NCBI GenBank assembly: GCA_000004695.1
Contig: CM000153.2
Location: 800,001-864,000, forward strand
Reading direction: 5' to 3'
Length of the DNA: 64,000 nucleotides
Source: Dictyostelium discoideum
Lineage: Eukaryota
Positions 3,791 through 46,100 of this stretch are shown in pieces. Numbering within the stretch: the stretch's first letter is position 1; the number at the start of each line of letters is the position of its first letter. Under the pieces are notes generated by a model. It was not told the DNA's origin. It ran no database searches and saw nothing but the letters and a program-made list of their open reading frames with translations. The position numbers and the translations under genes were made by a program.

Positions 3791-4024
3791 TTTTTTATTT
3801 CTATTTTTATTTTAATTATATTATTTTAATTTTTTATTATTATTTTTATTTTTATGTTTTATATCTTTAATTTTAATTCTATTATTATTATTATTTTTAT
3901 TATAATGGTGGTTATTGTTTGAATAAATATAAAAAATGATATAATTTAGTTTGAAAATAAATTAAATTTGATTTAACTTTTATATAAACATTATTATGAT
4001 TATTATTATTTGATTTTTAATCCT

Positions 4025-4690
4025 GTAAGAATTAAAACCATTCTTTATTGAAAAGGGAGTGCCAGAAATTGAAGTTTAATTTTTAATTTCATTTAATGGT
4101 ACTAAAGTACATAAGATATCCACAGTATCTGGTGGACTATTAATTACGAATGGAATTGAGAAATCTTGATTTGAAAGTAAAGGTGAAGGAGTTGAATAAT
4201 TGAGTTGTTTTTCAACATTTGAGTGATTAGTATTAAAAATATATCCTGGTGATGATGGAGAATTTTTAAATTGATTAATAATTTCAATTGGAATTTTATC
4301 TAGTCTACATTTTATTTTGCCAGTTAATTGTTGTAGATTGATTTAAGACCAAATCATTAATGTAAAATAATGATGATAAACATTTCTTTATGATTGAATG
4401 TATAATTGGATCATTTTTAGTTTTTTCAGATTGTTGTTTTAAAATATTCATTGTAATATCATCTACTGCATCTAAACCAATTGAATTTTGGAAACTTGGA
4501 TTATTTCTAAATGAATTTCTACCTTCTTTAATTAAATCATAAATTTCATGAACTTCTCTCCAAGAATTCTCACATTCTGTTAAAAGTTTAATAATATTTT
4601 CACCAACTTTAAAAATATTATTTAAATCGGCTTCTGGTGATGGGAAATTACCAGTACCAAGTGAACCAGGTCACATATAAAAGTCTAAAA
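4025..4690 (-). pseudogene. 3'-terminal fragment (~660 bp) of the GTPase-patatin paralog family. It contains stop codons and has no upstream exons
   Basis: Near-identical at nucleotide level to 10021-10680 (the 3' end of copy B). Homology ends abruptly at ~4690. There is an in-frame TAA (gaagtttaa) and small indels. No ORF is reported here. Confidence 0.7.
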
Positions 4691-4833: not shown

Positions 4834-4864
<31 letters not shown>

Positions 4865-4939
4865 TTTTTTTTAATAAAATATTTCTTATTTTTTTTTTTT
4901 TTCAGATATTTTTAAATAATAAAATAGTCAATATTTTCC

Positions 4940-5010
4940 ATTTAGTTTATTTAAACTCATTTTATTCCAAATAAATTAATAAAATAGTCCCAAAAAATAA
5001 TAAGAAATTT

Positions 5011-5057
<47 letters not shown>

Positions 5058-5454: not shown

Positions 5455-7623
5455 TTAATTTTTAGTAGTTATGAATGAATTCTCTATACCATTATTTATT
5501 GAAAAAGGATTACCTGAAATTGAAGTATCATTTTTAATATTATTTTTTGCAACCATAGTACATAAGATATCAATTATATCTGGTGGATTTTTGATTATGA
5601 ATGGATTTGAAAAATTATTTAATTGATTATTTGGGTGTGGAGGTGAAGGAGAAAAATATTGAAAATTTTTATCATTGTTTGAATACTTTAATACAAAAGC
5701 TGAACCTTTTTTTAATTGATTAATTATTTCGATTGGAATTTTATCAAGTCTACATTTTATATTACCAGTTAATTCTTTTTTAGATTTATTAAAAATTAAA
5801 TCATCAATGTAAAATAATGATGATAAAGATTTCTTTATAATTGAATGTACAGTTGGATCATTTTCAATGTTTACTTTTTGTTTTAAAATATTCATTGTAT
5901 TATCATCCATTTCATCCAAACCAATTGATTTCTGGAAACTTGGATTGTACCTAAATGAATTTTTACCTTCCCATATGAAACCATAATAAATTTCATGAAC
6001 TTCTCTCCAAGAATTTATAGATTGTGTTAAAAGATTATATTCCTGATCACCAACTTTAAAAATGTTATTTTTTTGATTTTCTGGTGATGGGAAATCACCA
6101 GTACCAAGTGAAACTAACGTGTCTAAGTTTCTACAAGGCCACATATCTTTATACTCTTTCATTGCAACTTTACAAGGATTATTATTCTTTAAACCACCAT
6201 CAAGAAATTGACGACTATTATATTCAAATGTTCTGAAATATTTAGGTGCAGCTGATGTGGCTTCAGCTGCGTCAGTTACTTTTGAACCAGATATAAAATG
6301 TGTTTGTTTTGAACATTTTGATGGGTATGTTTTTTTTTGATAATTTGAAAATATACACTCATCAAAATCACCAGACTCTTGTGTTACAGTTACAACTGCA
6401 GCCCTTATTTTTGGAAATGAAATTGATAAAAATTTGTCATTTAAAATGGTTTTATAACATTCTTTTAGTTTTTTTCTTTTATATTTGGGTTTTCCAAATA
6501 TATGGGTAATAATACCCAATGTAGGTCTTTCATAACCTTTTTTTGCCAAAATGTCAAATGATATAGCTAATTCTGGTAGTGTTTTCTCAGTTGATGCAAG
6601 TTGTAAAGCAACTAATCCACCTGCAGATGTACCAACAATTAAATCAAACAATTTTGAAATATGAATACCATATAGTTGCTTTTGTATTTCTTGTAAAACA
6701 TTGCAATGTAATATACCTCTAACTCCTCCACCATCCAATGATAGAACTCTTGCACCCATTGTTTTAATAAAATCTATTTCCTTTAATATATATTCTCTAT
6801 CCCCATAACATCCTGGAACTCTACATTCATCTTTAGGTCGATCAGGCATTTGAGAAAATATACCAAGTGAGCAATCTAAACATAGAAAATGTCCACATTT
6901 ATATTCTATATATGGAGAATTTAAACAACAACCAAAACAAACACCTTGATTTGTTGTTGCATGGCCAATGAAAACTTGTTTAATTGTTTCTTTACCAGAG
7001 AGGTGATTACTTAATAATAATGATAAATCATCATATTTTACTGATTCATCAAATTCTCCATCCCATGTATATCTTACTTCTGATTGGTTAAAAAAAGAGC
7101 CAAATATTTCAGTGTGCTTGGGTTTATATGTTTCACTTGATATATGCTTTGTATGAGTACCCCTAAAATTTGTACATGAATAGCCATGTACATTTTTTGA
7201 ACCACACGGTACCATCCCATGTATTTCACCTGATACTAGTTCTAATATGCTTTCAAAACGTGGATGCAATTTTTTAGAATACTCTGGACCTATGTGGTAA
7301 ATTTTTTTAAAATTTGTGTAAATCTCTGGCAATCTAAATTTTAATATATTCAAACAATGGGTGTAACTTTTTGATTCTTTTGAATTACATTTAAATGTTT
7401 CAACAAAATAATAATAATTTATTAAAAAGAATTCAAATAAGTAGTTGGCATGTAAATTTATCATTTGATCTGTCAAAGAATGTTCTTGATTTTTTGAATA
7501 AATTGGCAAAGTTGATTCTTCACTTCCAGATTTATGATTTTGATGTAAATTATCTAAGTCTGGATTAGTTTGAAAAAGACCATCTACTATTGGTCTTTCT
7601 TCTAGTTGTGTTTTATCAATATA

Positions 7624-7722
<99 letters not shown>

Positions 7723-8025
7723 ATTATTATTATTATTATTAGTATTATTAATATTATTATTATTATTATTATGATTTTTATTATTATTATTAGATGAAGT
7801 AGTTGTAGTTGTTGTTTTATTACTGATATTTGCCTCTCTATCCTTTAATATATCTGGTTCAAAATAAGATTCTTCTGAATTTATTGAAAATGTTATTGGT
7901 GTTCCTAAAAGATTTTGAATGGATTTAATTGATGAATCAGAAAATGTGTAATGTGACATATTCCCAATTTTATTTGAAGAAGAAGAAGAACTTGGCAAAT
8001 CTTCATCTGCATTAAAATTAATATA

Positions 8026-8096
<71 letters not shown>

Positions 8097-9490
8097 CATT
8101 ACTATTATTTGAAGTGAAATTTCTAAAAATTTTATTTGTTGATTTTGGTTCTTGAAAATTTGAAAAATCATCAATAATTCCAGTACAATTTAATTTAACT
8201 AAATCGGGTGAACCTATTGGATTTTTACTAAAGAAATTAGTTAAATTTGAAATTCTTTTCATACATTTTGATTTTTCAACAGAAATTTTTGGAGTTCTAT
8301 TATTTTTAAATTTTAAAGATTCTAAAACCTTTTCACTAATAGTTTCTTCCAATTTTTTAAATTGACTTTGATATCTATTAAAAGAATCTAATTCCTTTCC
8401 ATTAATATTTGGTAAGAAAATGATTGAAACTGATTGAAAACGTGTTTCTATCTCTTTTGAACCATGAAAATAATCCTTAAAATATTCTTTCTTGGCATAT
8501 TTCATATCATCATATTCTTTATTTTTATTAGAATTATTAAATAAAATGATTAAATGTGGACTACATGGATTATTTGCACTATCAGCTGCAACCGAAGAAA
8601 ATTCAAGTAAACTATCAATAACATCACCTCTATTTCTGGCATCACCATAAAATGTTAAAACAAAAACATCTGAACATAAATATAATAATCTTGGATAAGA
8701 TGATTGGACATATTTACTTCTAATATCAGCCTTCTAAATAATTAAATAAATAAAATAAAAAATAATAAAAAGAATTAGGAAAAAATCCATTATGAAATTA
8801 AAAATTTTTAATTTTTTAAAATCAAAATACAAACTATTAATAATGATTCATTTTTCTCATCTTTTTCTTTTTTTTCATTTCTTTCTTTTAAATCATTGGT
8901 TTTTTGAGAAAATGTTCCATTGATTCCTTCAGAATCAATAATTACATATTTAAACTTTTCTTCACCAACAGTTTCACCAATAAATGAATTTAAATCTGAA
9001 GAGGTTGATGTAATTGAATCACCACCAGGAATTGGATGATCGCAAGTTTTTGTCAAGTTACAAATTGTGGTTGATTTACCTGAGCCACTAGAACCAATAA
9101 AACTATCGACTAAAAATGGATCTTTATCTGATAATCCAATTTGACCCCATTTGTATCCATGATCAATTGTCTTTGTTTTAGTATTAACAAACAAAAGTTT
9201 ATTTTTTAAATCCATTGATCTATCATATTTTACAATATCATTGTAGCCTTGTGTGAATTTTTGATATTTAAGAAAAAAAGTAACCCTTTTAAATTCTTCA
9301 TAAGGAATTGTTTGGTGTTCTGATTCATCCTGATGTCTAGTTGCACATGATTTACAAATAATTCTATCTCCATTACATTGAAGACAAAAATGAAAATCAT
9401 CACTATTTGTTGATTCTTTTTGACATTTTTTAAAGTCACAAATTATTTTGGTAGGGTATTTATAAATTTCATCTTTTACAAATACCTTTT

Positions 9491-9494
<4 letters not shown>
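5455..9494 (-). CDS. Copy A (apparently intact, ~1312 aa) of a giant multidomain protein: N-terminal Cys/His zinc finger + P-loop GTPase (GBP/atlastin-like motifs), poly-Asn linker, RING-like Cys cluster and patatin-like phospholipase domain
   Basis: Exon 1 is about 8835-9494: MEKVFVKDEIYKYP..., zinc finger C-x4-C-x10-H-x-C-x2-C-x7-C-x2-C-x3-H-x5-H, GSSGSGKST, DSEG. Exon 2 is 5455-8733, starting right after ttag: KADIRSKYVQSSYPRLLYLCSDVFVLTF...; CFGCCLNSPYIEYKCGHFLCLDCS...CRVPGC; LSLDGGGVRG; GTSAGG; DGGLKNNNP. The intron is ~100 nt and AT-rich. The donor in copy A is non-canonical (GTTTGT), so its position is approximate. Confidence 0.7.
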
Positions 9495-9552
<58 letters not shown>

Positions 9553-10009: not shown

Positions 10010-13965
<3,956 letters not shown>

Positions 13966-14463
13966 TTCTACAATAAAAAAAAAAAAATTTGTAAAAAAAA
14001 AATTATTAAAAAAAAAAAAAAAAAAATTTAAAATTTTTTTTCTTTTATCAACTTAAAAATGCTTCCAAATTTTTCCACTTCAAAATTCAACCACTTAAAA
14101 ATGCTTCAAAATTTTTTTTTTTTTTTTTTAAAATCTTAAGTTTGATTTGGGCCAATATTTTTTTTTCAATTTTTAAAAAGAAAATAAAAAAAGGATTAAT
14201 AATAATTAAATTTAAAATTTGATACCAACAATTTTGAATTCTAAAAATAAACTTTTTTTTATTATTTTAAAGTCCCTTCAAATTTTTGTAATTACAAATA
14301 TTAATATGGTGAATTTTATAATTACAAATATTTTTTATTTTTAAAGTCAATACTGTGAGTGTAACTTAGAAAAAAAAAATTTTTATTTCTTTATTTTTTT
14401 TTTTTTTTATTTTAATTTTTTTTATTTTATTTTTTTTCTAAACCCCACAAATATATTTTTTTT

Positions 14464-14498
<35 letters not shown>

Positions 14499-14892
14499 TT
14501 TTTTTTTTTTTTTTGTATTTATTTTTTTATTCATTTATTTATTTATTTATTTATATATTTATTTATTTTATTTTTTAAATCAAAAATTTTATTTTTAGAA
14601 TTTAATTATTTATCATTCATTTTTAATTATTTTTTTATTTTGAAGAACAACAACTAGTGAATATATTTTATATAAAAAAATTAATTTGGTTGAATTAATT
14701 GTTATATTTTTTTTTTTTTTAAAAAAAAAAAATTTGAATGTTTGAATTAATAAATTAAAAACAACCTATCAAGATTTAATTCATTAATAAAAAAATAAAA
14801 ATAAAATAATTAATTCAGTCATGTTAATTTTTTTTTTCTCAATTGAACCCAAAAAAAAAAAAAAATTAAAAATAATAATAATAATTAAATTC

Positions 14893-14964
14893 GTTTTTGT
14901 GTATTTTTGGGTGCTTTATTTATCTATACTAAATTCATATTAAAAATTAATAAATTTAAATTGT

Positions 14965-14995
<31 letters not shown>

Positions 14996-15330
14996 CGGGT
15001 CTAATTTGAATGTTATCATCAATATTCTTCAAAATAAAAAAATAATTACAAGAAATGGATGAAAAATAATTAAATTCTAAAAATAAAATTTGATTTAAAA
15101 AATAAAATAAAAAATTCAAAAAACAGAATGATTACATTCATTTTTTTTAATTTTTATATCATTTTGTGTATTTTTGAGTGCCCTATTTATCTATACTTAA
15201 TTCATATTAAGAATTAATAAATTGTTTGAAAAAAAAAAAATGAAAAATAAAATGAAAAAAAAAATGAAAATTTTTTTTTTTTTTTTTTTTTTTTTGTGTG
15301 TCCAGTTTGAATGTTTTTATAAATATTTTT
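14893..15330. repeat. Two direct copies (~140 bp each, period ~270 bp) of an intergenic element between copies B and C
   Basis: 14893-15030 gtttttgtgtatttttgggtgctttatttatctatactaaattcatattaaaaattaataaatt...poly(T)...cgggtctaatttgaatgtt corresponds to 15163-15330 attttgtgtatttttgagtgccctatttatctatacttaattcatattaagaattaataaatt...poly(T)...gtgtgtccagtttgaatgtt. Confidence 0.6.
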
Positions 15331-15505
15331 ATTTTTGTTTTTTTTCTATTTTTATTGTTAATTTTTAAAATTTTAGTTCTATTTTTTTTTTTTATTTTTT
15401 TTTTTTTATTATTATTTTGATTATTTAATTTTTTAATTCTATTATTATTTTTATTTTAATTTTTTTATTTATTTTTAATTTTATTATTATTATTATTATT
15501 TTTTT

Positions 15506-18500
15506 TTAATCCTCCAAAAGTATGAATAAATTATTTATACCATTCTTTATTGAAAAGGGAGTGCCAGAAATTGAAGTTTCATTTTTAATTTCATTCAATG
15601 GTACTAAAGTACATAAGATATCAATAGTATCTGGTGGACTATTAATTACGAATGGAATTGAGAAATCTTTATTTGGAGGTAAAGGTGAAGGAGTTGAATA
15701 TTTAAATTGTTTTTCAACATTTGAGTGATTAGTATTAAAAATAAATACTGGTGATGAGTTTTTAAATTGATTATTAATTTCGATTGGAATTTTATCAAGC
15801 CTACATTTTATATTACCAGTTAATTGATTTGTAGATTGATTTAAGACCAAATCGTCAATGTAAAATAATGATGATAAACATTTCTTTATGATTGAATGTA
15901 TAATTGGATCATTTTTAGTTTTTTCAGATTGTTGTTTTAAAATATTCATTGTAATATCATCTACTGCATCTAAACCAATTGACTTTTTGGAAACTTGGAT
16001 TGTGTCTAAATGAATTTCTACCTTCTTTAATTATATCATAAATTTCATGAACTTCTCTCCTAGAATTTTCACATTCTGTTAAAAGATTAATAATCTTTTC
16101 ACCAAATCTAAATAAATTATTTAAATCTGCTTCTGGTGATGGGAAATTACCAGTACCAAGTGAAGCCAAAATATCAATATTTCTACCAGGCCACATATCT
16201 TTACACTCTTTCATTGCAACTTTACATGGATTATTATTGATTAAACCGCCATCTTGAAATTGACGATAATTAAATTCAAATTTTGAGAAAAAAGTTGGTG
16301 CAGCTGATGTTGCCTCTGCAGCGTCAATTACATTTGAATTGGTAATGAATTTCCTTTGTTCTGAACATCTTGTTGGGTTAGTCTTTTTTTGGTAATTTAA
16401 AAATAAACATTCCTCTAAATTACCAGATTCTTGAGTTACTGATGTAACTGCTACTCTAATTTTTGAGAATGAATTTTTTAATTTTTCATCAGGTGGGAAT
16501 ATAGTTTTGAAGGATTCTCTTAGTTTATCTCTACTATATTTTGGTTTTGATACTAGGTTAGCTAATAATTGGAATGGATGTTTTACAAATACACTTTTTG
16601 ATAAACTTTCCATTGCTGTACTTAATTGTGCAGGAGTCTTTTGTGTTGATGCTAATGCCAATGCAACCAATCCTCCTGCTGATGTACCAACGATTAAATC
16701 GAATAAAGAAATGATTGGAATGTCAAATAGTTGTTTTTGAATTTGTTCCAATGCATCACAATGTAAAATACCTCTTACACCACCACCATCTAATGATAAT
16801 ATTCTTACACCCATTGTTTGTATTTTATCGATTTCTTTGATCTTACAAGAAAGTTTTCCATTACATCCCCTTACTCTACAACCTTCGTCCGATGTATTTT
16901 GGGTTTGGTCAATAAATCTACCAAGTGAACAATTTAAACATAATAAATGACCACATGTATATGGTATATATGGCGAATTCAAACAACAACCAAAACAAAC
17001 ACCTTGATTTGTTGTTGAACCTTGTATATTGTATGGTAGAATTCTAGGTATACTAGTAAGACGATTACTTAAAAATACCGATAAATCAAAGTATTCTAAT
17101 GATGGCACAAATTCACCATCCCACATATACCTTACGAATGTGTCGGTTTTAAAAAATCCTAACAAACCACCATTTGATAATTTATAAGTTTCATTTGATT
17201 GATGGTTTCTATGAGTTTCTCTATAATTCGTACAAGAATGACCTTTTGCATTCTTTGAACTACATGGTACCATCTTAAATATTTCTTTTGAAACTAAATC
17301 TAAAGTCTTTTTAAAAGATGGATGCAATTTTTTTGAAAACTCTGAATTAATATTATTTGTTTCCTTAAAAATTGAATAAACGTTTGGCAACTTTATTTTC
17401 AAAATTTCTAAACTATCAGAATAACATTTTGATAATGATGATGATGGTTTATTCTCTACTAAATAATTATAATTTATTAAAAAAAATTCTAATAAATACT
17501 GTGCATATTTACAAAGATGTAAATCACTTAAATTATTATCAAGTTTTATGACAGATGTGTTTAATGGTGATGATTGTGATCTTTTTAATGGTGATTGTGA
17601 TGGAGTTGTTGATGAACTATTTGATAATTTTGATGGTTGTGGTGATGGTGGTTGTAATGGTGATGGCGATGGTGGCAATTCTAATGATTGATATGATTGT
17701 GATGGAGATGGTGATGGTGTTGATAGTGTTGATGATGATGGAGTTGTTGATGAACTATTTGGTAATGTTTTTAATTCACTAATTTGTCTTTGCTGTGATG
17801 GTGGTGGCGATTGTAATGATTGATATGATGGTGATGGTGTTAATTCAATAACTTGTCCTTTTTGTAAATTTTCATTATTATATTTATTATAATGGTCTTG
17901 TGGAACAGTATCATCAATCTCTGGACGTAAAAATGATTGAATTTGAAAAAGCTCATCTGCTATTGGTCTTTCTTCAAGTTGTGATTTATCAATGTAACTA
18001 TTATAATCTTTATCATTATTATTAATAATTTTATCATTACTATTATTAATATTACTATTAATATTATTATTATTATAATAATTATTATCATTACAATTAT
18101 TTTTATTATTAATAATATTATTATTATTATTAATAATAATATTATTATTATTATTATTTTTATTATTATTATAATTATAATTATAATTATTATTTTTATT
18201 ATTATTATTATTATAATTATTATTATTATAATTATTATTATTTAAATTATTGTCCGAATTATTTTTTGAATTTGTAAATTTATCTCTATTGATAGGAGAC
18301 AATCCGGTTTGTGGTTGTCTGTTATTTTCATTTAATGGTTTCAAATTTCCCACTGAATATGTTCTGACCCTATCTCTAACTAAATTTGATTCTAATTCAA
18401 CGGGTTTTGAAGTATGCAAAGGTGGTGGTGAATTAAAAATAGTATGAAGACTTTTAATTGATGATGACGGAATTGGTGTTGAGAGATGTGATTTATTAAC

Positions 18501-18544
18501 AACTCTAGAGTTATTACTATTATTGTTATTATTATTATTACTAA

Positions 18545-18607
<63 letters not shown>

Positions 18608-18608
18608 G

Positions 18609-18643
<35 letters not shown>

Positions 18644-18721
18644 AAGAGATGGGCATTGATGGGATTGTTTTATTATTATTATTACTTTTATTATTATTAT
18701 TATTACTTTTATTATTACTAC

Positions 18722-18803
<82 letters not shown>

Positions 18804-19510
18804 ATTATTATTATTATTATTAGAGAAGGACGTTGATGGAACAGTTTTATTATAAATTGGTTTTAATTTATGTGTACTTGGTAATGGTTTTTGTAGTTGA
18901 GCTTGATAATCATTAAGTGAAATTTCATCAAATTTTCTTACTATACCAGTACAATTTAATTTAATTAAATCAGGGGAACCATCTGGATTAGAACTAAAGA
19001 AACTAGCTAAACTTGAAATTTTTTGCATTGATCTTGATTTTTCAACCGAAATTTTTGGACTTCTGCTTTCTTTGTATTTTAAAGATTCCAATACTTTTTC
19101 ACTAATCGTTTCTTCCAATTTTTTAAATTGTCTTTGATATCTATGGAAGGTATTATTTGATTTTTCATTAAAATTAGGTAAGAAAATTATTGATACTGAT
19201 TGAAAACGTAATTGTAAGTCGATTAAATGTGAATGTTGATCTTTGAAATATTCATTCTTTGCGAATGCCATATCATCATATTGTTCTTTTTTAGAGGAAT
19301 TATTAAATAAGATGATTAAATGTGGACTGCATGGATTATTGGTACTATCGGCTGCAACCTGAGAATATTGGACTAATCTATCATAAACATCAGCTCTATT
19401 TCCTGCATTGCTATCAAATGTAAACACAAATACATCTGAACACAAATATAATAATCTTGGATATGAATATTGAATAAATGGAGTTCTTATTTGAGCTTCC
19501 TAATTTTTGT

Positions 19511-19563
<53 letters not shown>

Positions 19564-20235
19564 TTAATATATCTTTTGGAAAAAAAAAAAAAAAAAAATG
19601 ATAATAATAATTACTTGGAGTTTTATTTTATTTGTTGTTTGAGAATTTGTTCCATTTATACCTTCAGAATCAATTATTAAATATTTATAATTTTTATTAC
19701 TACCCATTGTTTCGCCAATAAAAGAATTAATATCAGAAGATGTTGAAGAAAGAGTTTCATGATTTCCAGGAATTGGATGGTTATAATTTTTAGTTAAATG
19801 ACCAATTGTAGTTGATTTACCTGAACCACTGGTACCAATAAAACTAACAACTAAAAATGGTTCATTATCAGATAACCCAATTGAATCCCATTTATTTCCA
19901 AAATCAATTTTCTTTGATAAAGTATTAATAAATAATAATTTATTATCTCTATCCATTGATTCATTATATTGTTTAATATGTTGATAATCTTTAGTGAATT
20001 GTTCATACTTTAAAAAAAATGTAACTTTTTTATATTCTTTATATGGTATAGTTTGATGATCTGTTTGTCCAGTATAACCTTTTTTACAAGAAGTACAAAC
20101 TATTTTATCATCAGTGCATCCCAGACAATAATGAAAGTCTTCAATATTTGTTGACTCTTTTAAACATCTTTTTAAACCACATTTCATTTTATTACTATGT
20201 CTATAAACTTCATCTTTTACAAATGTTTGTTTCAT
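15506..20235 (-). CDS. Copy C of the GTPase-patatin family. Exon 1 and most of the body are intact, but a 1-nt insertion near 15950-15980 shifts the frame so the last ~147 codons are read in another frame. This is a possible pseudogene or a sequence error
   Basis: Exon 1 is 19615-20235: MKQTFVKDEVYRHS..., GTSGSGKST, DSEGINGT, donor CTCCAA|GTAATT. Exon 2 is 19499 downward, starting after ttag: EAQIRTPFIQYSYPRLLYLCSD.... Body ORF 15957-19445 plus separate-frame ORF 15506-15949 encode the conserved C-terminus. Copy C has gactttttgg where copy B has gaattttgga. Confidence 0.65.
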
Positions 20236-20404
20236 TTTTTTTTTTTTTTTTTTTTTATTTGGTATTAAAGTTATTATTATTATTATTTTTTTTTTTTATT
20301 TGATACTACTGTTATTGTTAATTTTGTTTTTTTTTTTTTTTTTTTTTTTTTCGCAGTGCAATAAAAAAAAAAAAAATTAAGATTAAAAAAAAAAAAAAAA
20401 AAAC

Positions 20405-20439
<35 letters not shown>

Positions 20440-20857
20440 ATCTTTTTAAAAGATATTATTTAATATCTTATTTCTTTTATCAACTTAAAATCCAAATTAT
20501 TTTTTTTTTCCATTTAAAAATTCAACCACTTAAATGCTTCCAAATTTTTTTTTTTTTTTTTAAAAATCCTAATTTTGATTTTTTGGCCCAATATCATTTT
20601 TTAATTTTTAAAGAAAATAAAAATCCAAATTATTTTTTTTTCCATTTAAAAATTCAACCACTTAAATGCTTCCAAATTTTTTTTTTTTTTTTTAAAATCT
20701 TAATTTTTAAAGAAAATAAAAAAAGAATTAATAATAACAATAAAATTAAATGTAATATCAACAATTTTAAATTCTAAAAATAAACTTTTTTTTTTTTTTT
20801 TTAGTTTAACACGAGTTTTTTTTTATTTGTTTTTTTTTTATTATTTATTTATTTCAT

Positions 20858-22240
20858 TTAAAGTTCGTCATGATCAACTTTTTTGGTTGATTTTTTGACT
20901 TCTTCTTTTTTGTCATCAGTTTTAACTAAATCTTCTTCAGCGACTTCTTCTTCTTCTTCATCAGCTTCTTCGGCTTCTTTTTCAGCAGCTTTTTCGGCAG
21001 CTAATTTTTCGTCAGCTTTCTTTCTCTCTTCAGCTTTGGCGGCTTCGAGGTCGTCAAACATTTTCTTTTCGGCTTCTTGGTTGGCAACAAAGGTCTTTTC
21101 AGAGAAATCTTTAGCTTCTTCGACAGAGTCGGTGACGATCATATTGTTAAAGATGGAACCAGATTTAACTTGCCATAATTCGAAACCGATAGCACCGAGA
21201 TCATTAAAGAGGTAGAGTTCATTGTCTTCAGCGTATTCTGGGTTATCAATTAATGGGTGTACCCATTCACCTTTGTATTCTGGATTTGGGATTTTCTTTG
21301 CTTTCCATTCACCTTTGTATTCTGGATTGGCGATGGTTGGGGCTTCCCATTCACCGTCGTCTTCTTCATTCCAATCCTCTGGTTTGACAGCTTCTGGATC
21401 AACGATTGAAGCTGGGATATCGTCATGACCGGCTGGTTTAACATCTTCTGGGTCATCGATTTCCTTTACGTCAACCCAATCGACTGGTTTGGATTGTTTT
21501 GGATCTTTGATTTGTTTTGATGGAAGTAATTCCCAATCATCAGCGAGGTTACCTGCTTGGATCTCTTTGTTATCGACGAGTACTTTGTAGGTGTTATCTG
21601 GTGAAATGACCAAAGTGTATTGATGAGTTAATTGATCGGTTTCAACTTTGTTGATTTCTTTCTTGATTAAATGGTTCTTTCCTTTGTAGTTGAGAATGAC
21701 GTGAACTCTCTTTGAGGCACCACAAACATCTGGACCAAACATAATGGAATATTCAGATTCACCATCGAATGCTGATTGATCTAATTTGGATGGTAATAAC
21801 TTGATGTATGAACCACCACAATCAACTTTTTGTTCATTCTTTACAGTGTATTGGAGAACTAAATCTTTACCTTTGTTACTGAAACTTGGGAATTTAGCTG
21901 ATACAGCGTAGAAACGAGCATCTTCACTAGTTTGAATACCTTTTTGATTTTCATCACCAAACCATTTACCTGCAGTATGAACTAATTTACCTGATTTACC
22001 ATCTTCTTTATGCCAATCACTAACAACCCATCTTGATTCCCAATCGTCTAAAAAAAAAAATTAAAAAAAATTGAAAAAAAAAAAAAAAAAAAAATTGTTT
22101 GGTTAGATTTAGTTATTATTTTTTTTTTTTATTTTTTCAAATCAAATTTACTTACTATCAAAGGTATCTTTGAAATGAACTGTTGATAATGCAAAATTGA
22201 AAACAAAAACTAAGAAAATTAAACACAATAAAAGTCTCAT
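20858..22240 (-). CDS. crtA: Calreticulin (ER Ca2+-binding lectin chaperone), 2 exons, C-terminal HDEL
   Basis: Exon 1 is 22156-22240: signal peptide MRLLLCLIFLVFVFNFALS...KDTFD, donor GTAAGT. Exon 2 is 20858-22047, starting after ttttag: DWESRWVVSDWHKEDGKSGK...KVDCGGSYIKLLP, P-domain repeats NPEYKGEWK/IPNPEYKGEW, acidic tail, HDEL stop. Confidence 0.9.
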
Positions 22241-24797: not shown

Positions 24798-26280
24798 TTA
24801 ATATGGAGTTATTCCATTTGGTAAACAAACTGGAATTCCAGTTGTATCAGCAACACATTTAGTTCCTGGTGAACATTTTACAAATTCACATAATGGGGCA
24901 CAACGTGATTGTTCTAATAAACAAATTTCATTTAATTTACAAGTGATAATTGGGCCACATGGAATTGATAATCCATCACCCTCATTTTCATTATCATCAT
25001 ATCCATTAGGATCATTATCATAATCATCATTAGAATTTGATGGTAAACGACACGATGGAATTTGAATACAGCAGTCACGAGAACCTCTTGGACATTTATT
25101 AGGAACCATTGCGCAATCCAATGAACCACAATTAACATCATGACAAGTTTTACAATGACCTGGATGGGTTTCTCTTACGCATGATGGGAGATCATTGATG
25201 ATTTCGCAAGAGTATCCAGATGGGCAATGTAAATCTCTACATGGGTAGTTTGGTGGTAATGGATTACGAATACATGTTGGAAGATTATTAATTGCCTTGC
25301 AAACATAGCCATATGGACAAGTTACATTACGACATAATGAGCCTGGATTTGGTCTTTGGCAATGTGGACGATGGTGAGAGTCGACCACGCAATCATATCC
25401 TGGTGGACAATGGTGATGCTCGCATTCCTTTTCTTCACATTCTACACAATTGGCGGTTCCACCAAATTCGACACAATTGAATCCTTTTGGACATTGAACG
25501 GCATCACAAAGCACTGGTGGAGGTGGTGGTGGCTTTGGTTTTGGTACACAGCATGCTTTACCATCTTTTACAATACATTCTTTTCCTCTACCACATTTAA
25601 TAGCTTTACAGAGATGATGTGGTTTTGGTGGTGGTGGTCTTGGCTTTTCAACACAGTAAGCTCCACCATGAATATCTTGACAACAATAATCCTCTGGACA
25701 AATTACATTCTTACATGGTGAGACTGGTCCACCACCGCCACCACCACCCTTACAAACTGGATAACGTGGACAACATGATGTACCCATACATGGTACTGGG
25801 TCAACCCATTCACAAACTCCTCCACTTGCTTCACATAGCTTTTGATCACAAGTTTCATTTCTAACTTGATAATCATATAAAAATGGTGAATTTGGTCTAC
25901 ATGAACTCCAAATCTCATAAATTGCATCGGTTTTTGAATCTTTCATACAACTTAATGGAGCATTTCCACAACCATTTCCATTATCTTCTACACAAAAGAA
26001 TTTCTTTGTACCACAACATGAAACAAAAGGTAAATACTTACAACCAGAATTTGGTGCTTTACATTGGTCCTCTGACAAACTATCACAATCTTTTTTTAGA
26101 AATAAAAAAAAAAAAAAAAAAAAGATTAGTTCCTATAATTATAAATTAAAAATAAAAATAAAATTTAAACTTACTTCTAGGAGGAGGTTTCCACCATTTA
26201 TCATGTTCCGGATTTGCATTACTAATTGATAATGTTGAGAAAACTAAAACCAAACATACTAATAAATTATTTATCCTCAT
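24798..26280 (-). CDS. Secreted Cys/Pro-rich extracellular protein, 2 exons, ~460 aa. It has follistatin/EGF-like CxxGYxC repeats, polyPro and polyGly runs, and resembles dictyostelid spore-coat/ECM proteins
   Basis: Exon 1 is 26174-26280: MRINNLLVCLVLVFSTLSISNA signal peptide, donor GTAAGT. Exon 2 is 24798-26079, starting after gatag: SEDQCKAPNSGCKYLPFVSCCG.... Many repeats are of the type CPxGYxC....LPxC, with PPPPKP and GGGGGGG. Confidence 0.65.
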
Positions 26281-37649: not shown

Positions 37650-39734
37650 TTATAATTTATAATATGAACGTTTTGTAACACGACCATCAGAACCACAAGA
37701 GAATAAACCATTATTTTCTAATCTAACTTGCATTACACCATAGGTTGAAACTGGAGATTTGAAAACACCTGTTGGACGAACAAAAGTTTGTTTTTTATGA
37801 GCATCTTCAAAGGTATTGAGACAAGTCATCGATGGTAAGGACCAAATCTTAATGTTACCATCACTACTACCAGAGCAAACAAACTCTTCGAATGGATCCA
37901 ATGCCAATGATTTAGTATTTAAATGATGAGCTTTGAAACTTTCCAATTGTTTATGAGTACGAATATCGTAGAGTGACAATGAACCTTTCTTACCACCAAC
38001 GATGATAGTTTGACGTTTTGGAGAATAAACAATTGAGGATGCGCCATTCTCTTGATCGGTGTAAGAGGCAATCAATGATTTATTAGGTGGCAATAATACA
38101 TCCCATAGACAGATATCACGAGATTTGCTATCACTACTACTGATACCGGCAGTTGCCAATAAACTTCCAGAATTTAAAAATGTGAAATCCAAACATTGCT
38201 TAGAATGAGCTTGAAGTGAATAGAATGGTTTCAAGGTATCTTCTTGAGCTGCGAATTGCCACAACAAGATATTACCCGCCATATCGCATGCACCAAATTT
38301 AGTGCCACTTTGATTGAATTTACATCTAACGATTCTTGGTTTTTGAGGGAGTTGATAGGCAGTCAATACCTCTGGTATACCAAATTGCCATAAACAAACC
38401 GAACCATCGATACCACCCGATAAATAGAATGAAGAGTTTGGATGACTTTCTAAACATTGTACAATTATATTATGATCCATTTGTCTACTTGATCTTAAAC
38501 CACTGAATACCGTACTAATCTTACCTTTGGAGATGTTTAAAGATGAAACTGATTTACCAGTGATACGTGGTCTTTTATTATCTCTACTTGAAGATGGTGA
38601 ACTAATTAAATTCTCTGATGGATCTATATCATGTTCTTCCCTAATTTCACTAACCAATTGTTTATGATCAATCTCTCTAATACCACGAGTGGTTGCAATT
38701 GCCATAACATTTAATTCTGGTGAAGTTGGATCCAAACAAAATGATTGTAATAAATCACTATCCTTATAAATTTCAATCTCTTCTTCAAATTTAATTTTAC
38801 CACTACCACCACCAAATTGAACTTGGCTACCAACTTTTTTCAATGGCATTGGTTCATTATTTTTATTTACCTTACTATTATTATTATTGTTATTACCACC
38901 ATTAATATCTACTGGTAAAGTAATTTCAATACCAAGTATAATATGATCTAATAATTCTTTTTGATTTGTAATTAAAATTTTCCAAATTTGATATTGATCA
39001 GTTGAATTAAATTCTTTATAAGATTTTAAAAGTTCTAAAAAGTTTTCAATTGTTGTTTTAGTTGTATTATTGGTGAATTGATCTAAAATCTTTTGTGGAA
39101 CATGTAAAAGTTTTGATTGTGATGAACCAATCCAAAGTGATAAACGTTGATTCACTGAATCGAATACTTGATGGTATGGCAATGCCTTTACTAATTGATC
39201 GAAGCATTGTTTAAAATATTTCAATGAAAGGAAATCAAAGAATCTTTTTAAGAATTTATATATTAATTTCTTTTCATCATTAATTCTCTTTAATTCTTCT
39301 TTATCTAATATTTCATTTGGATCGTCATCTTCATCATCCATATCAAAATCATCATCATCATCATTATTATTATCACCAGCACCAATTAATTCATTATTTT
39401 CAGTATCTTTATAAGATCTAATTGGTAATTGTTTAATTTGATCAATGAATTGATTAAATTGTTGGATAGTATTCTTATTTTTGAATAATACTAATAACAC
39501 ATCGAAACGTTGTGAACCATAACCTAATAAAAATAACATCATATAAACTGTTGATAAAATCAATGAATGACTATGATAACGTTTATCAATAGACATAATT
39601 GATTGATAAATCTCTAATGAAACTGTTAATAATGGTTGTGATGCTGATGAATTCATTAACATTAAAATATTATCATCATCAAATCTTAATAATGATTTAA
39701 TTATTGAAATTGAAATTAATTCTAATATATCCAT
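37650..39734 (-). CDS. C-terminal WD40 region (694 aa) that probably belongs to the DmX-like/rabconnectin-3/Rav1 gene directly upstream on the same strand. Otherwise it is a separate WD40 gene
   Basis: C-terminal WD repeats: ...GSSDGNIKIWSLPSMTCLNTFEDAHKKQ...GVMQVRLENNGLFSCGSDGRVT. The 400 bp between this ORF and the upstream 1266-aa ORF is coding-like in three shifting frames with no intron signals. Confidence 0.55.
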   Translation of the reverse strand: MDILELISISIIKSLLRFDDDNILMLMNSSASQPLLTVSLEIYQSIMSIDKRYHSHSLILSTVYMMLFLLGYGSQRFDVLLVLFKNKNTIQQFNQFIDQIKQLPIRSYKDTENNELIGAGDNNNDDDDDFDMDDEDDDPNEILDKEELKRINDEKKLIYKFLKRFFDFLSLKYFKQCFDQLVKALPYHQVFDSVNQRLSLWIGSSQSKLLHVPQKILDQFTNNTTKTTIENFLELLKSYKEFNSTDQYQIWKILITNQKELLDHIILGIEITLPVDINGGNNNNNNSKVNKNNEPMPLKKVGSQVQFGGGSGKIKFEEEIEIYKDSDLLQSFCLDPTSPELNVMAIATTRGIREIDHKQLVSEIREEHDIDPSENLISSPSSSRDNKRPRITGKSVSSLNISKGKISTVFSGLRSSRQMDHNIIVQCLESHPNSSFYLSGGIDGSVCLWQFGIPEVLTAYQLPQKPRIVRCKFNQSGTKFGACDMAGNILLWQFAAQEDTLKPFYSLQAHSKQCLDFTFLNSGSLLATAGISSSDSKSRDICLWDVLLPPNKSLIASYTDQENGASSIVYSPKRQTIIVGGKKGSLSLYDIRTHKQLESFKAHHLNTKSLALDPFEEFVCSGSSDGNIKIWSLPSMTCLNTFEDAHKKQTFVRPTGVFKSPVSTYGVMQVRLENNGLFSCGSDGRVTKRSYYKL

Positions 39735-40142
39735 TGCTTTTTCATCACCATCTTCATTATTATTACTATTATTATTATTATTATTATTATATTTAGTTAA
39801 TTGAATTACTTGATAAACATATTGTCTATTTGAACAATATTCAATTAATGATTTAACAATTTCTTTTGGAATTAACTTGATTCTTTTTACATAAATATTC
39901 TAATGATTCTTTAAAATCTTTAAATTCCTCATCCCAATTATCAGCTTCTCTAGTTTCCATAATGGTTTCAAGTAAAACTTTAACAACCAATTTATCTTTT
40001 AATTCATTATCAATCAATGAATATAATGAAAGTTTTTCTTTTTTACTTGGTATGAATGTTGCTGCTTACAATGATGCTTCTGCATGCTGATAATGCTGCT
40101 TTATCTTCTCTATCTTTATTTGATTTTTCTTCTTCAATCTCT

Positions 40143-43100
40143 TTAATTGATTCTTCTTTTGGATTTATTACTATCTAACAACTCCCACCTATTATTATTA
40201 TTATTATTGGTGGTGGTTGATGATGGTGCACCAAAGTCTAAACCATAATTATTTGAAGATGATGATTGACTTGGTGTATTGAAATCTAATCCCATATAAT
40301 TTGATGATGAATTTTCTGGTTTTGATGGTGTACTACCAAAGTCTAAACCATAATTATTTGAATTTGATGATGATGATTGAGTTGGTGTATTGAAATCTAG
40401 TCCCATATAAGATGAAGAAGTCGATGGTTTTGATGGTGTACTACCAAAATCTAATCCTAAATCATTTGAATTTGATTGAGTTGGTGTATTGAAATCTAGT
40501 CCCATATAAGATGATGAAGTTGGTTTTGATGGTGCACTACCAAAATCTAAACCTAAATCATTTGAAGGTTTACTAAAGAAACCACTACTACTACCGCCTC
40601 CACCACCAAAATCTAAACCCAAATCATATGACGGTTTATTAAAGAAACCACTACCACCGCCACCACCACCAAAATCTAAACCTAAATCATTTGATTTTTG
40701 TTTTTCTTTTTCTAATCTTTCTTTTTCTTTTTCTTTTTCTTGTTGTTGTTGTTTTAATTTTTCTAATTTTTCAACTTCTTGACGTTCTTGATTATCAGTT
40801 AAAATGGTTGGATGAGATGCTTCTAATCTTTCAATATTTTCAAGTGCTAATAATGAACAACCACTATTGAAATAAGAGTAAGAACTAGTTCTTAAGAATT
40901 CATCTTCTTTCTTTTTATCCTCTGATAATTGACGTAATTGAACATGATTCTTTAAGAAACGGAAGAAATATAAAATGGAAGGACCTAATTGAGAAGCACG
41001 TAATTGTTGAGAGATTGGTGATACCACTTGAGTGGTTAAGGTTGTACCTGTAGCATTTGAGTAATTTGTACCAGTGGTTGATCTATTAATTGGTGATGAT
41101 ACCATTGAATTACGACTAGACATACCAATTGGTGTTGAATTACCAGAAACACCTAAACTATAACCACCACCACCACCACCACGTTGATTGTTATCATCTT
41201 CATCAAGTTTTCTATCACCATCTATTGAAACTGATGGTATTAAACATGTTATAGCATCTTCATACTTTTTCAATAACCAATTACAAATACTTAATAAACT
41301 ACGATCATTAGTTTTCTTTGCAAGTGGTATGATATGATCTTCAATGATCATACGTGAACATTCGCCATTCTCACCTTCATACAATCTTGAGATAACCAAT
41401 GCCAATTGGAAATCACCTTGCATTTGTAATAAAAGATTTACAGCTTTCTTTAATTGACCTGCTAAAAGGAATAATGAAGCAGCCAATTCATATTTATGTT
41501 TACTTTGTAAAAGGAATGCACTTTTATTTGCAGCAGTGATCCATTTAGCTTGAGTGAAATCTTGTGAAAGGAATTCAACTTGTTTTATATCTTTTGAAGC
41601 TTTATGCAATGCAACCAACGCACCTTTTTTACCCAATGCTAAATAATACAATGAACATTCTCTTGGGTCTCTTCTTTGAATGTAGGTTGTCTTTGCCAAC
41701 TTTTCCACTACATTTATCAAGGTACTTGGCGATTTAATCCACAAACCAGCACCAATTTGTTTTAAAGCATCCCAATCTGGATCGGTTGGGAAACAAGTTG
41801 AAAGAATAGTTTCTTGTGCCTCTGAATGTAACGCCCAAAGAATATCGGTTGTACTCAATGAGATTGGACGATCTTGTGGTGGTAATGATCTACGTAAAAA
41901 TTGGAATACCTTTGCTGACAATATGAAACGTGAACCATTCTCATCGAGACCACCTCTCATTTCACCAATTTCACCATAGGTATCGGTAACTGCTAACAAT
42001 TGAATTTGTTCACTACTTGAAAGATTACCCAATTTAATTGATGATAAAATTTCACTTAATTTTCTTGCTTGTCTTTTTGTAAATTTATTTGAATTTTCTA
42101 ATTCATCCCTATCACTATCGTCGTCGTCGTCGTCGTCATCGTCATCATCTTTATTACGATCATTACGATCATTATGATTATTCTTATCAATTGAATTCAT
42201 TCTATCCATATCATCAGAAGTACCAGTTTTCTTTGATTTTGAATTTGTAAATTCATCGAAATGAATAATCTCTTCAATTGATAATGGTGGTATGAAAACT
42301 GGTGATTTTGGTAAATCATTTAAATCATCATATTTTTCGAAAAGGAATTGACAAACATGTTTTAAGATCTTTTCAACAACACCAAATTTACCAGCCATCA
42401 TGTATTCAGTTAAGAATTTTGGATGATACATTGGTAAAGGACGTTGAAGTTCAGAATGTTGATGATAAATTGAATTCAATTTGGTATTGTAATCATGACC
42501 AACCGTTTGAAATTGTGATAATGCTAAGTTGTCATTGATGTTGTTAAGTTTTGACCATTTTGTAAACACCATAATTTGATTACCAGCACTAACATACAAT
42601 GATAGATCTTTACCCCATTCTAAGCTACTACATGGCGAGGTTAAATCATCATAGTTATGAGTTTGAACCCATGGTCTCTTATAACTACCAATCACTCTAT
42701 CCACTGGTTTATTTAAGATTTTCACTTGGTTACCATACCCAAATGCAACTGAATAGCTACCATCATCTAAACTAACAAAACTAAAACAACAACTAATAAT
42801 ATCCTCATGTGCCAATGACGATGATGATGCCGCTAATGCCGTTCCGACACCAACATTGTTTGTACTGGCTTTCAATAAAATTGTAGTTGTAAGTGGCGGT
42901 GATTTAAATGCACCAATTCCTGAAGTTGGTGATGTTATTATAACTTGTGGTGTATTTAATGGTGTAGCAATTGCTGTTGTTGTTGTTGTTGTTGTTGTTG
43001 TTATTGCTTGTGGTATTTCACTATCTATATAAAATTTAATGGTATCTTCTAAACGTAACTTTGGTGTATGTGATTCTAATTCCCAAATATGAATTTCTGG

Positions 43101-46100
43101 ATTTGGATTAGTAGAGAATGCTTTTGATGCAAATCTACCAAAATAAGCTGCTTTAACTGATTCAACTGGTTGTTGATATGCATGATAACCACCCATTTCA
43201 CCAATTGTCCAATCTTCGAATTTGATCTCTTCTTCACTATCACCACCCTTTACAAATGATATTTTTGGTGTTATACCAAATACTGATACATAACCATCAA
43301 TACTACCAGTAATACAAATTGGATGTGTTAAAACTACTCTATCTTCATTATTGTACTTTTCATTATTATTATTATTATTATTATCGTCATTATTATCGTC
43401 ATCATCATTATCACTAAAATCTTCATTTTGATTTTTATTCATTTTATTAATAGTTGTCATATCGAAAATACCTTTTGGTGCAGCACAAATACAAGAAATT
43501 CTTGAATCCCTTTCAAATTCTTTTGTTGCTAATAATTTTGATTTTAAAATTGATGGAGAGGATGATGAAGAATATTTGAAATCCTTTTCAACACTAACAC
43601 CCCAAACATATAATTTATCTGAATGTTTATTCAAACCAATTAAAAAGAATTGGTATGGTAATAAAACACTACTTTCACCACCACCACCACCATTACGTCT
43701 ACTGCTGTCGTTATTAACTTTATTCTTATCAAAATCCATTGAATTATAATGATAAATTAAATTTAATGGATCAACTATATGAACTTCATCAATCCAATCA
43801 TCCTCTAATGTTGATTCTTCAATCATACCAATTGATAACAATGATGATTTAACATAATTCTCTTGACTAATCTCTATATAATATACAAATATACCATCTC
43901 TATTTGAAAAGAAACAAAACTTTTGATTTGGTGACCATGTCATTGAATAATATGATGGAAATGATCCAATATCAATTAAATAATTTGGTGATTGAATTTT
44001 CTATAATAACAATAACAATAATAATAATCGAAAAATTAATAAATATTAAATTTAAAAATATTTGTTTTTAAATATAAACTTACACTTGAATCTGTTGAAT
44101 TCCAAATAATAACATTATTTTGATAATCTAAAGATGAAAGATATGGTGAATTTTTAGATGCTGCCAACTTTTTAATTGTACTTTTATGACCATAACATCT
44201 AGATACTGGTGATGCATTTGTACTATTATTATTATTATATGTACATATAATAATAAAAAAGAAAAAAAGTATTAGAATATATGTATATATATATATATAT
44301 TTATATTTTCATTTAAAAAAAAAAGATAAACATTACATTTGAGTTTGATTTTGATTTTGAATATAAAATCTTCTTGAAGAGATTGCACCATTAAAAGAGT
44401 TAAAACAAACTTTAATTGAACCAGGAGTATTATCAGTCAATGACATTGGTTGATATAATGAGATGATTCTATTTGGACCAATTTCTTGTGGTGATAAAAT
44501 TTGACTATTAATCCAAATTGATAATGATGAAGTTTGCTTTGTCATTGAATCATCTGTTCTTAATTTCCACAACACTAAAGAACCATCCAATTTAATAACA
44601 ATAATCCAATCAACTATTTGTTTAGTTTTTGCTAAAGAATCTTTTTGTCTTAATAAAATTGGATTTGTTAAATGTAATTTAAAATCATGACTTCTTAAAT
44701 ATGAATTTGAATCATCTGTTGAATTATTATTATTATTACTATTACTATTTAATGATGTACCTGTAGTTCCACTTGAAGATTTTGATAATTTACCACCACT
44801 AAAACCACCACCTGCATTATTATTATTATTACTATTACTATTATTTTTTTCATCATTTATATTATTATCTTCATTATTTTTATTAAATATATCAAATTTA
44901 TCTTCATTTTGAGAATAAACCCAATCAACAATATCAGAACCTGATGGTATAATACTTGAAACATTAAATTGTAATCTTCTAGATTGTGGTGATTGTTGCC
45001 ATAAACGGACAACACCATCTTTGCAATTTGTTAATAAGATATTATGAGTTGAAGTTTTTCTATTTCTCCAAGAAATCCAAGTGATTGAACGTGGATGTGG
45101 TAAATAAATGAAACCATAGGTTTCACCTTCAAATTTTTTATTTTTCTGCTTATTGAAAATCTCTTTCAATTGATTCAATTGTTTTTGTAATTCTTCAATT
45201 GATTGTTCTTCTTTTTGTGGTTGTTGTTGTTGCTGTTGTTGTTCTTTATTTTTATTAGCATCACCACCTTTTTCTCTTTCTTTTTCTTTTTGTAATTTAT
45301 CTCTTTTATTTAATTCAGTATTGATATCGTTTGAATCTTCACCAGTGCCAATGCCACCACTACTAACCACCTCGTCAAAACCAATTTTATTTGCTTTATA
45401 GATTGGGCCTTTGTTGGTGAGTTTATTGAATTGCTCTTTGTATGCACCTTTTCTGTTCTTTTGTTTGGCCAATTCCTCACGTTGTAATAGTAATGATAAT
45501 TGTTCTTGTTGTAATTTAATTTGTTGCTCCTCTGCCAATAGCTTTGCTTTTGATTTCTTTTGAAGGAACCAAACCTTAATTAAACGATCAAATTTACCAC
45601 AAGTTGCAAAGAATGAACCATCGGGTGAACATGATAAATTATTAATTGGACTTGAACTATCAGTTTTCCAAACGATTTGTGCTTGCTTATTAAATAATTT
45701 TTGTTCTTTTATTCTTTGATCTTGTAAAAACTTTTCATTATTAACTCTAACTTGTGTATTATTATTCAATGCACTCGTTGTTGGTGTATTATTACCGCTA
45801 CTATTTAAATTGATTTTATTAGTCGTTGTTGTTGAACTAAATTCTTGATCTAAACTATTATTTTTACCAAATGACGATGACGATGTTGAATTTGGTGATG
45901 ATGTTGAATTATAATTATAATTATTATTGGCAGAACTACTACCACTACCACTACTAACACCACCACCATTATTAATTTGATAATTTTTCATAATGGTTTG
46001 TTGATCTAATTTCCATTTTACAATTTGTGAATGACCACCAACAATAAAAGAATTTGATTGTAACCATGATAAAGCTGTAATTTCAAATTGACTTGGTATT

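Follow-up and report, generated by a model that had tools for sequence, protein, structure and literature searches.

We analyzed a 64,000-nucleotide (nt) stretch of the Dictyostelium discoideum AX4 genome (GenBank assembly GCA_000004695.1, contig CM000153.2, positions 800,001 to 864,000 of the forward strand; hereafter the window, whose coordinates are used throughout), following up a preliminary description that had noted patatin-like lipase motifs at 6120–7000. On the minus strand, between the calreticulin gene (20858–22240) and DDB_G0283549 (3052–3468), lie three long reading frames that are paralogs of one another (copies A, B, and C), arranged head to tail. The window encodes exact matches to RasS (EAL65646.1) and to DDB_G0283549, and the genes adjoining the array are crtA and a C2-domain gene. 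The preliminary description had counted three copies; a dead 3′ fragment (fragment D) at about 3972–4668 adds a half copy, and the locus thus holds three long paralogs plus this remnant (three and a half copies, not three). The features of the array are as follows.

8835–9494, minus strand: copy A exon 1, with a B-box-like Cys/His zinc finger, G1 (GSSGSGKST, 9069–9095), and G3 (IIDSEG, 8913–8942); ATG at 9494.
5455–8733, minus strand: copy A exon 2, with the rest of the GTPase domain, poly-Asn linker, helical bundle, RING, patatin domain, C-terminal domain, and stop codon (5455–5457).
7624–8121, minus strand: low-complexity linker of copy A, poly-Asn/Ser/Thr, separating the GTPase domain from the helical bundle.
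6808–6942, minus strand: copy A RING-like finger, C-x2-C-x10-C-x-H-x2-C-x2-C-x17-C-x4-C.
6085–6783, minus strand: copy A patatin catalytic domain, with all motifs (DGGGVRG, GTSAGG, AAEATSAAP, DGGLKNNNP, and SLGTG).
6682–6744, minus strand: copy A oxyanion-hole peptide LSLDGGGVRGILHCNVLQEIQ, containing DGGGVRG.
6595–6645, minus strand: copy A nucleophile peptide DLIVGTSAGGLVALQLA, containing GTSAGG.
6235–6270, minus strand: copy A AAEATSAAP block.
6151–6210, minus strand: copy A catalytic-Asp peptide QFLDGGLKNNNPCKVAMKEY, containing DGGLKNNNP.
6085–6111, minus strand: copy A SLGTG.
10010–13967, minus strand: copy B, an exon-2-only paralog without exon 1, frame open to its stop.
11246–11308, 11159–11209, and 10712–10771, minus strand: copy B oxyanion-hole, nucleophile, and Asp peptides.
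19615–20235, minus strand: copy C exon 1, with the zinc finger and G1 to G3; donor CAA/GTAATT, intron 19500–19614.
15506–19499, minus strand: copy C exon 2, with a 1-nt insertion (extra A, CCAAAAAG) at about 15988 and a premature stop at 15957.
16737–16799, 16650–16700, and 16203–16262, minus strand: copy C oxyanion-hole, nucleophile, and Asp peptides.
About 3972–4668, minus strand: fragment D, a dead 3′ remnant of a B/C-type copy, with a frameshift and an internal stop.

All catalytic peptides quoted for the three copies were located on the minus strand, and the interval 6120–7000, put forward as the patatin core, does contain the lipase motifs, although it also covers the RING-like finger. 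The oxyanion hole DGGGVRG (G-G-G-x-R/K-G type), the nucleophile GTSAGG (Ser in G-x-S-x-G), and the catalytic-Asp DGG (D-G-A/G) were each positive in A, B, and C, and neither Ser nor Asp is replaced in any copy. The strict conservation ascribed to these motifs extends to the Ser, the Asp, and the oxyanion hole but not to the whole Asp motif (DGGLxNNNP): Copy A has DGGLKNNNP and copy C DGGLINNNP, through a derived K to I change. With Pfam Patatin (PF01734), whose cut-off is 27.7 bits, A, B, and C scored 98.6, 110.6, and 111.4 bits, respectively (E = 7e-28 to 8e-32), and the patatin assignment is therefore far beyond chance.

Around the lipase, the family proteins share one domain order. Starting at the N terminus, it comprises a B-box-like zinc finger, a large GTPase of the GBP/atlastin clade, a helical bundle, a RING-like finger, the patatin domain, and a beta-rich C-terminal domain. 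An alignment of 26 members, drawn from Dictyostelia, Ascomycota, and a dinoflagellate, shows this order throughout, and full-length relatives include Tieghemostelium P0002 (1056 aa, without low-complexity linkers), Cavenderia, many Ascomycota (~1000–1150 aa), and a dinoflagellate. The helical bundle carries a CCHH zinc site whose C..C..H..H residues are invariant in the family alignment, and the C-terminal domain (~220 aa) is marked by the family motifs RLNP, RLxASLFYF, GxIxCR, and ISGxP. In Dictyostelium, long poly-Asn and P/S/Q tracts separate the GTPase from the helical bundle; the poly-Asn linker is missing in Tieghemostelium and fungal orthologs. In some fungal and other members (P0025, P0040, P0053, and P0058) the nucleophile Ser is replaced, giving GTGTGG, GTEIGG, or GTGTSG with the architecture otherwise kept; the fungal relatives P0025 and P0040 both have GTGTGG. 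Such Ser-less members may be catalytically dead pseudo-lipases.

An AlphaFold2 model of the C-terminal 676 residues of copy A (predicted local distance difference test, pLDDT, 85.4; predicted template modeling score, pTM, 0.87) opens with a bundle of three helices like that of atlastins and GBPs. Structure comparison identified its lipase as a patatin alpha/beta fold, matched best by iPLA2beta (32.5), plant patatin (32.4), CapE (31.2), and CapV (31.0), with PlpD (23.8), cPLA2 (15), and ExoU (10) scoring lower. By sequence, CapV-type models score best. In a PDB sequence search with the lipase, CapV was the best solved structure (E = 2.4e-14, residues 11–211), and iPLA2beta followed at 2.8e-10 over 54 residues; the NCBIfam model CBASS_lipase (NF041079; CBASS, cyclic-oligonucleotide-based antiphage signaling system) gave 125.3 and 134.6 bits over hidden Markov model (HMM) positions 1–304 of 317, below its 200-bit equivalog cut-off; and PADLOC phospholipase effector models matched at E = 1e-40. 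The likeness to CapV (PDB 8zr9) thus consists of the best sequence match among solved structures, a near full-length HMM alignment, and the PADLOC matches. CapV, a CBASS effector, has a cyclic-nucleotide context that the present family lacks; the family is eukaryotic and has its lipase fused to other domains.

Within the patatin-like group (iPLA2beta, plant patatin, and CapV; PF01734), the family stands apart in that the catalytic domain forms an internal part of a ~1100–1500-aa protein, with the GTPase, helical bundle, and RING ahead of it and an extra C-terminal domain after it. The motif DGGxxxNNP had been read as the iPLA2/PNPLA-type variant; it is no marker of that subtype, because CapV has it too (DGGLVANNP). 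It is also extremely improbable that these genes are simply Dictyostelium orthologs of an iPLA2/PNPLA housekeeping lipase. The N-terminal ankyrin repeats of iPLA2beta/PNPLA9 are replaced by a zinc finger and a GTPase (no ankyrin Pfam match was found in A, B, C, or orthologs), and the accessory domains are wholly different; CapV and plant patatin score equally well in structure, with CapV-type models best in sequence; and tandem turnover with lineage-specific pseudogenes, described below, would be unusual for a housekeeping gene.

The large G domain has a fold closest to GBP/atlastin in the model of its Tieghemostelium ortholog P0002 (pLDDT 78, pTM 0.83), whose matches were GBP1 (18.1), GBP2 (17.7), SMG9 (17.2), atlastin-3 (16.7), Sey1 (15.2), and RNF112 (13.7), with small GTPases at about 12–14. 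Members of the GBP/atlastin/Sey1/SMG9/RNF112 clade differ from the family described here, in which a RING C-terminal to the G domain and a lipase effector are fused. The P-loop domain is recognized across the family by the motifs GxTGAGKST, PTSGDV, DCEG, YPRLLYxFSDV, and LIIVxN, and in copy A by GSSGSGKST (G1), TSTSSD (G2), and IIDSEG (G3); the family alignment shows G21, K22, S23, D69, and E71 as invariant and T46 and G72 as nearly so, and no G4 motif was identified in the domain. In Pfam, the G domain gave only weak generic P-loop matches (E > 0.001), and its profile run against the PDB returned Rab-31 (5e-5) and Sey1 (1e-3). A 2021 review of dynamin-superfamily proteins in Dictyostelium lists a single GBP homolog in D. 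discoideum, gnbp (DDB_G0281639) (PMC8565484).

A word-index homology search with the N-terminal region returned 3 matches; an index-free profile search of a 50%-clustered library with the G domain returned 2098 cluster representatives, 476 of them at E = 1e-30 or lower. Patatin was present in 31 of the 36 long top matches scanned, so fusion with a lipase is the rule for this G domain, and the architecture recurs in several hundred cluster representatives or more, from amoebae, fungi, and a dinoflagellate. The RING Cys/His columns are invariant across the 26 family members, with a last pair of C-x4-C in Dictyostelium and C-x2-C in fungi. Fungal members match Pfam RING models (e.g., P0028, zf-RING_UBOX, 25.7 bits vs. 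a cut-off of 25.2); A, B, and C match no Pfam RING model, and pLDDT over the RING region of the copy A model is 62–81. Relatives go by “patatin family protein” or “PNPLA domain-containing protein,” and the lipase itself is therefore already annotated; with those labels in place, conserved patatin motifs among paralogs are an ordinary finding. The searchable literature yielded no description of the GTPase–RING–patatin architecture, and no paper was found under candidate DDB_G identifiers for these genes. PF28431, a Pfam label precomputed for fungal members, is absent from the Pfam copy used, so part of the family may be recently curated.

Two sibling lineages with flanks 93–95% identical to the window provided orthologs: L001 (“D. 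discoideum” GCA_054859385.1) and L002 (D. cf. discoideum), each with one intact C-type gene adjoining calreticulin, X1 (1379 aa) and X2 (1391 aa), respectively. The preliminary description had proposed per-domain dN/dS as a check, with a value of about 1 across the lipase telling against selection. We computed it from codon alignments with our own Nei–Gojobori (NG86) and Biopython maximum-likelihood (ML) estimates. Against the intact orthologs, the lipase ratio of nonsynonymous (N) to synonymous (S) changes per site (pN/pS) was 0.14 (B vs. X1), 0.07 (B vs. X2), and 0.11 (X1 vs. X2), with ML omega of 0.03–0.08 (P ≤ 1e-7). Between paralogs, A vs. B gave omega 0.31 [0.21–0.48] by NG86 and 0.13 by ML, and A vs. 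B and A vs. C together spanned 0.13–0.32. The purifying selection claimed for the lipase is borne out by these values; B vs. C, with 19 N and 7 S (pN/pS 0.75, not significant), is the pair for which the check went the other way. Linkers gave 0.68–0.98 in the B/X1/X2 comparisons, and the copy A linker an NG86 omega of about 1 against B and C; with these values (0.7–1.0) and with B/C length differences of 9–63 nt, the linkers do diverge freely, as had been described. The lipase is the most constrained module across lineages, and linkers drift almost neutrally.

Motif retention is a different matter. The A-type ortholog in L001 (psiA) is a pseudogene: residues 137–581 are missing and the remainder is spread over three frames by 5-, 22-, and 1-nt deletions. 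A 432-aa annotated fragment of it (P0001), 84% identical to A, still retains DGGGVRG, GTSAGG, and DGGLKNNNP; EATS is gone from its AAEATSAAP block. Since a frameshifted pseudogene keeps all three motifs, their retention is no proof of function, and the preliminary argument from motif conservation to a functional enzyme is unsound when it stands alone. The A-type copy of L002 is absent or degenerate. The second copy is degraded differently in the two lineages, by frame-breaking deletions in L001 (7018–11299) and by an inverted segment with large losses in L002 (8274–11732), and copy number at this locus varies between lineages of the D. discoideum complex.

Copy B lacks the 5′ part of the gene. 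From its first in-frame ATG it would encode a 1247-aa product without the zinc finger and G1–G3; homology to C begins 10 nt inside exon 2, and no exon-1 open reading frame (ORF) is present in 13968–15505, the 1.5 kb upstream. Sequence immediately upstream (13972–14436) aligns with the region upstream of the C start codon (20391–20854), and B is therefore a duplicate minus ~850 bp that included exon 1 (zinc finger and G1–G3). Its patatin domain remains close to the ancestral state: Polarized with X1 and X2, the B branch shows 1 N and 2 S changes there.

Copies B and C are 97.6% identical over 3909 nt. Their indels are all multiples of 3 (12, 27, 63, 9, 3, 3, and 6 nt) save one, the extra A in C; those of 9–63 nt lie in the low-complexity linkers and those of 3–6 nt in linker 2, a middle-domain loop, and the C-terminal region. 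At the frameshift site C reads CCAAAAAG where B reads CCAAAAT, and translation ends at 15957, past the lipase core and ahead of the last ~150 residues. Since the B/C duplication the C lipase branch has gained 13 nonsynonymous and 2 synonymous changes (polarized with X1 and X2). This count conflicts with omega 0.1 (P = 2e-6; P = 0.006 with a 24-bp cluster taken as a single event) and agrees with neutral evolution. Within that cluster, 16548–16571 in C against 11057–11080 in B, at least 10 point differences without an indel turn NFITYPLI into QLLANLVS; B agrees with the orthologs, and the surroundings are 97.6% identical between the copies. A compensated frameshift or an inversion does not fit as the source of QLLANLVS, as the alignment is of equal length with point differences only; micro-conversion, error-prone repair, or an assembly error are possible origins.

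A sequencing error in the A-run would restore C as a full-length functional ortholog of the 1379- and 1391-aa genes. C does have the exon 1 that B lacks (92% identical to exon 1 of the intact L001 and L002 orthologs), adjoins crtA as they do, and carries no nonsense codons, and just one A, in CCAAAA(A)G, has been inserted. We nevertheless consider this unlikely, given the excess of derived nonsynonymous changes in C at sites conserved in A, B, X1, and X2, among them the K to I change in the Asp motif and a W to R change (NSWREV) directly downstream of the lipase domain. The view carried by the preliminary description, in which all three copies encode working lipases under purifying selection, is harder still to sustain. 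The catalytic Ser, Asp, and oxyanion hole in every copy, the absence of nonsense codons from all of them, and the A vs. B and A vs. C omega values are what one would expect from it; yet comparisons of A with B or C record mostly old history, the B vs. C ratio is not significant, B is without exon 1, C combines a frameshift with its 13:2 branch, and psiA in L001 (P0001) keeps the same motifs. The claim of a functional enzyme is better apportioned: It holds for the family, probably for copy A and perhaps for copy B, as judged from their sequences, and does not hold for copy C.

Copy A runs from 9494 to 5455 as 1312 codons with no stop and no frameshift. Its exon 2 is an open frame behind the acceptor TTTAG/AAG at 8733/8734, and a candidate donor predicted from the sequence, ATA/GTTTGT at 8835/8834, would leave an intron of ~101 nt. 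The frame offers 700 single-nucleotide routes to a stop, and ~13 nonsense codons would be expected from drift over ~0.055 substitutions per site; the frame contains none (P of about 3e-6 for d = 0.055, 0.03 for d = 0.015). Selection has therefore preserved the open frame over most of that period. Compared with psiA, pN/pS is 0.48 in the lipase (P = 0.017) and 0.68–0.90 elsewhere, with 0.90 in the C-terminal domain; one constrained and one neutral branch would give the lipase value.

These figures bear on a bleaker account, that the whole AX4 array is dead or dying and A a pseudogene without a stop so far. The fate of the A-type copy in L001 (pseudogene) and L002 (absent or degenerate), the 0.68–0.90 ratios outside the lipase, the failure to find the A, B, and C proteins in the protein collection, and the odd donor proposed for copy A would all sit well with it. 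Set against them are a long frame that drift would hardly have left open, a lipase ratio that fits a constrained A branch beside a neutral partner, and gene calls at both A and B in the annotation of a second assembly, GCA_054883475.1; we regard the account as very doubtful.

That assembly (L003) is independent and near-identical to the window (99.5%), with differences almost solely in intergenic A/T runs. The A and B coding sequences are identical in it except for one substitution at 5464, in copy A. Its automatic annotation joins fragment D to copy A as a 1459-aa product. The sole length differences fall in homopolymer or AT tracts: a 26-T run (9495–9520) directly upstream of the copy A start codon, and 4- and 10-nt runs (4862–5026) downstream of A. 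They reflect either assembly uncertainty or real instability. Fragment D itself starts at SLGTGNFPS, right after the catalytic-Asp region, and spans ~640 bp with 94% nt identity to 10037–10677, the end of copy B. Turnover of the array is thus by birth and death: A is intact, B a recent duplicate, C a decaying sister of B, and D a dead stub.

Taken together, 6120–7000 probably represents the RING and the Ser–Asp core of a patatin-like phospholipase in copy A, part of a conserved multidomain family that sits here in a birth-and-death tandem array. In such a protein, nucleotide-dependent dimerization or oligomerization of the GBP-like G domain would gate the lipase; the lipase would act as a PLA-type acyl hydrolase on membrane lipid; and the RING may add a ubiquitin-ligase or assembly function. 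Several points weigh against this reading. That GTP gates the lipase is an argument by analogy rather than a result; the G-domain fold was modeled on a Tieghemostelium ortholog 31% identical to A rather than on a Dictyostelium protein; and Pfam GBP or dynamin models gave no match at E ≤ 1. The copy A exon 1–2 join is a model, because the proposed donor GTTTGT is atypical, and neither the protein models of A, B, and C nor their ORFs had an exact match in the protein collection. Relaxed constraint may affect parts of A, given the lipase and C-terminal-domain ratios against psiA, and the frameshift in C hangs on one extra A in a run of five in a single assembly.

A broader proposal is more tentative, and we hold it to be on the unlikely side: The family could be a eukaryotic cell-autonomous defense or conflict module. 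Assembly of the GBP-like GTPase on a target membrane would then license the CapV-like phospholipase fused to it, and the RING would add ubiquitin tags. The target membrane, e.g., a pathogen vacuole or a non-self membrane, would be destroyed by the lipase. A role of this kind is suggested by three analogies, to the CapV-like effector, to the GBP-like sensor/scaffold, and to fungal PLP-1, in which patatin and NTPase motifs are both needed for cell death (PMC12881547). The Neurospora NLR PLP-1 (patatin, NB-ARC, and TPR) likewise joins a patatin lipase and a P-loop NTPase in one polypeptide. It differs in having a STAND NB-ARC domain where the present family has a GBP-like TRAFAC GTPase, in its reversed domain order, and in its TPR; the family described here has no TPR or other repeat sensor domains. 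Also speculatively, rapid gain and loss of copies may point to a defense role, with the array evolving as immune genes do.

Two other regions of the window were noted. On the minus strand at 37650–46384, a run of three long ORFs (694, 1266, and 683 aa) abounds in WD40-like and low-complexity segments; these ORFs resemble exons of a single very large gene, possibly of rabconnectin/DmX type. At 24798–26078, also on the minus strand, a 426-aa ORF of extreme Cys and Pro content with repeated CxxGxxC-type modules looks like a secreted or extracellular-matrix protein.

For the family, catalytic-motif retention proves a poor proxy for function, as a frameshifted ortholog and a decaying paralog keep every catalytic motif. 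The more interesting result is the wider architecture, in which one protein unites a GTPase resembling GBP/atlastin with a RING and with a lipase from the iPLA2/patatin/CapV structural group. If the GTPase gates the lipase, these proteins would offer a tractable model for coupling GBP-type proteins to membrane damage; Dictyostelium is haploid and genetically accessible, with infection assays established. Should the defense proposal be true, the family would place a GBP and a membrane-lytic effector directly in one polypeptide, common to amoebae, fungi, and dinoflagellates.

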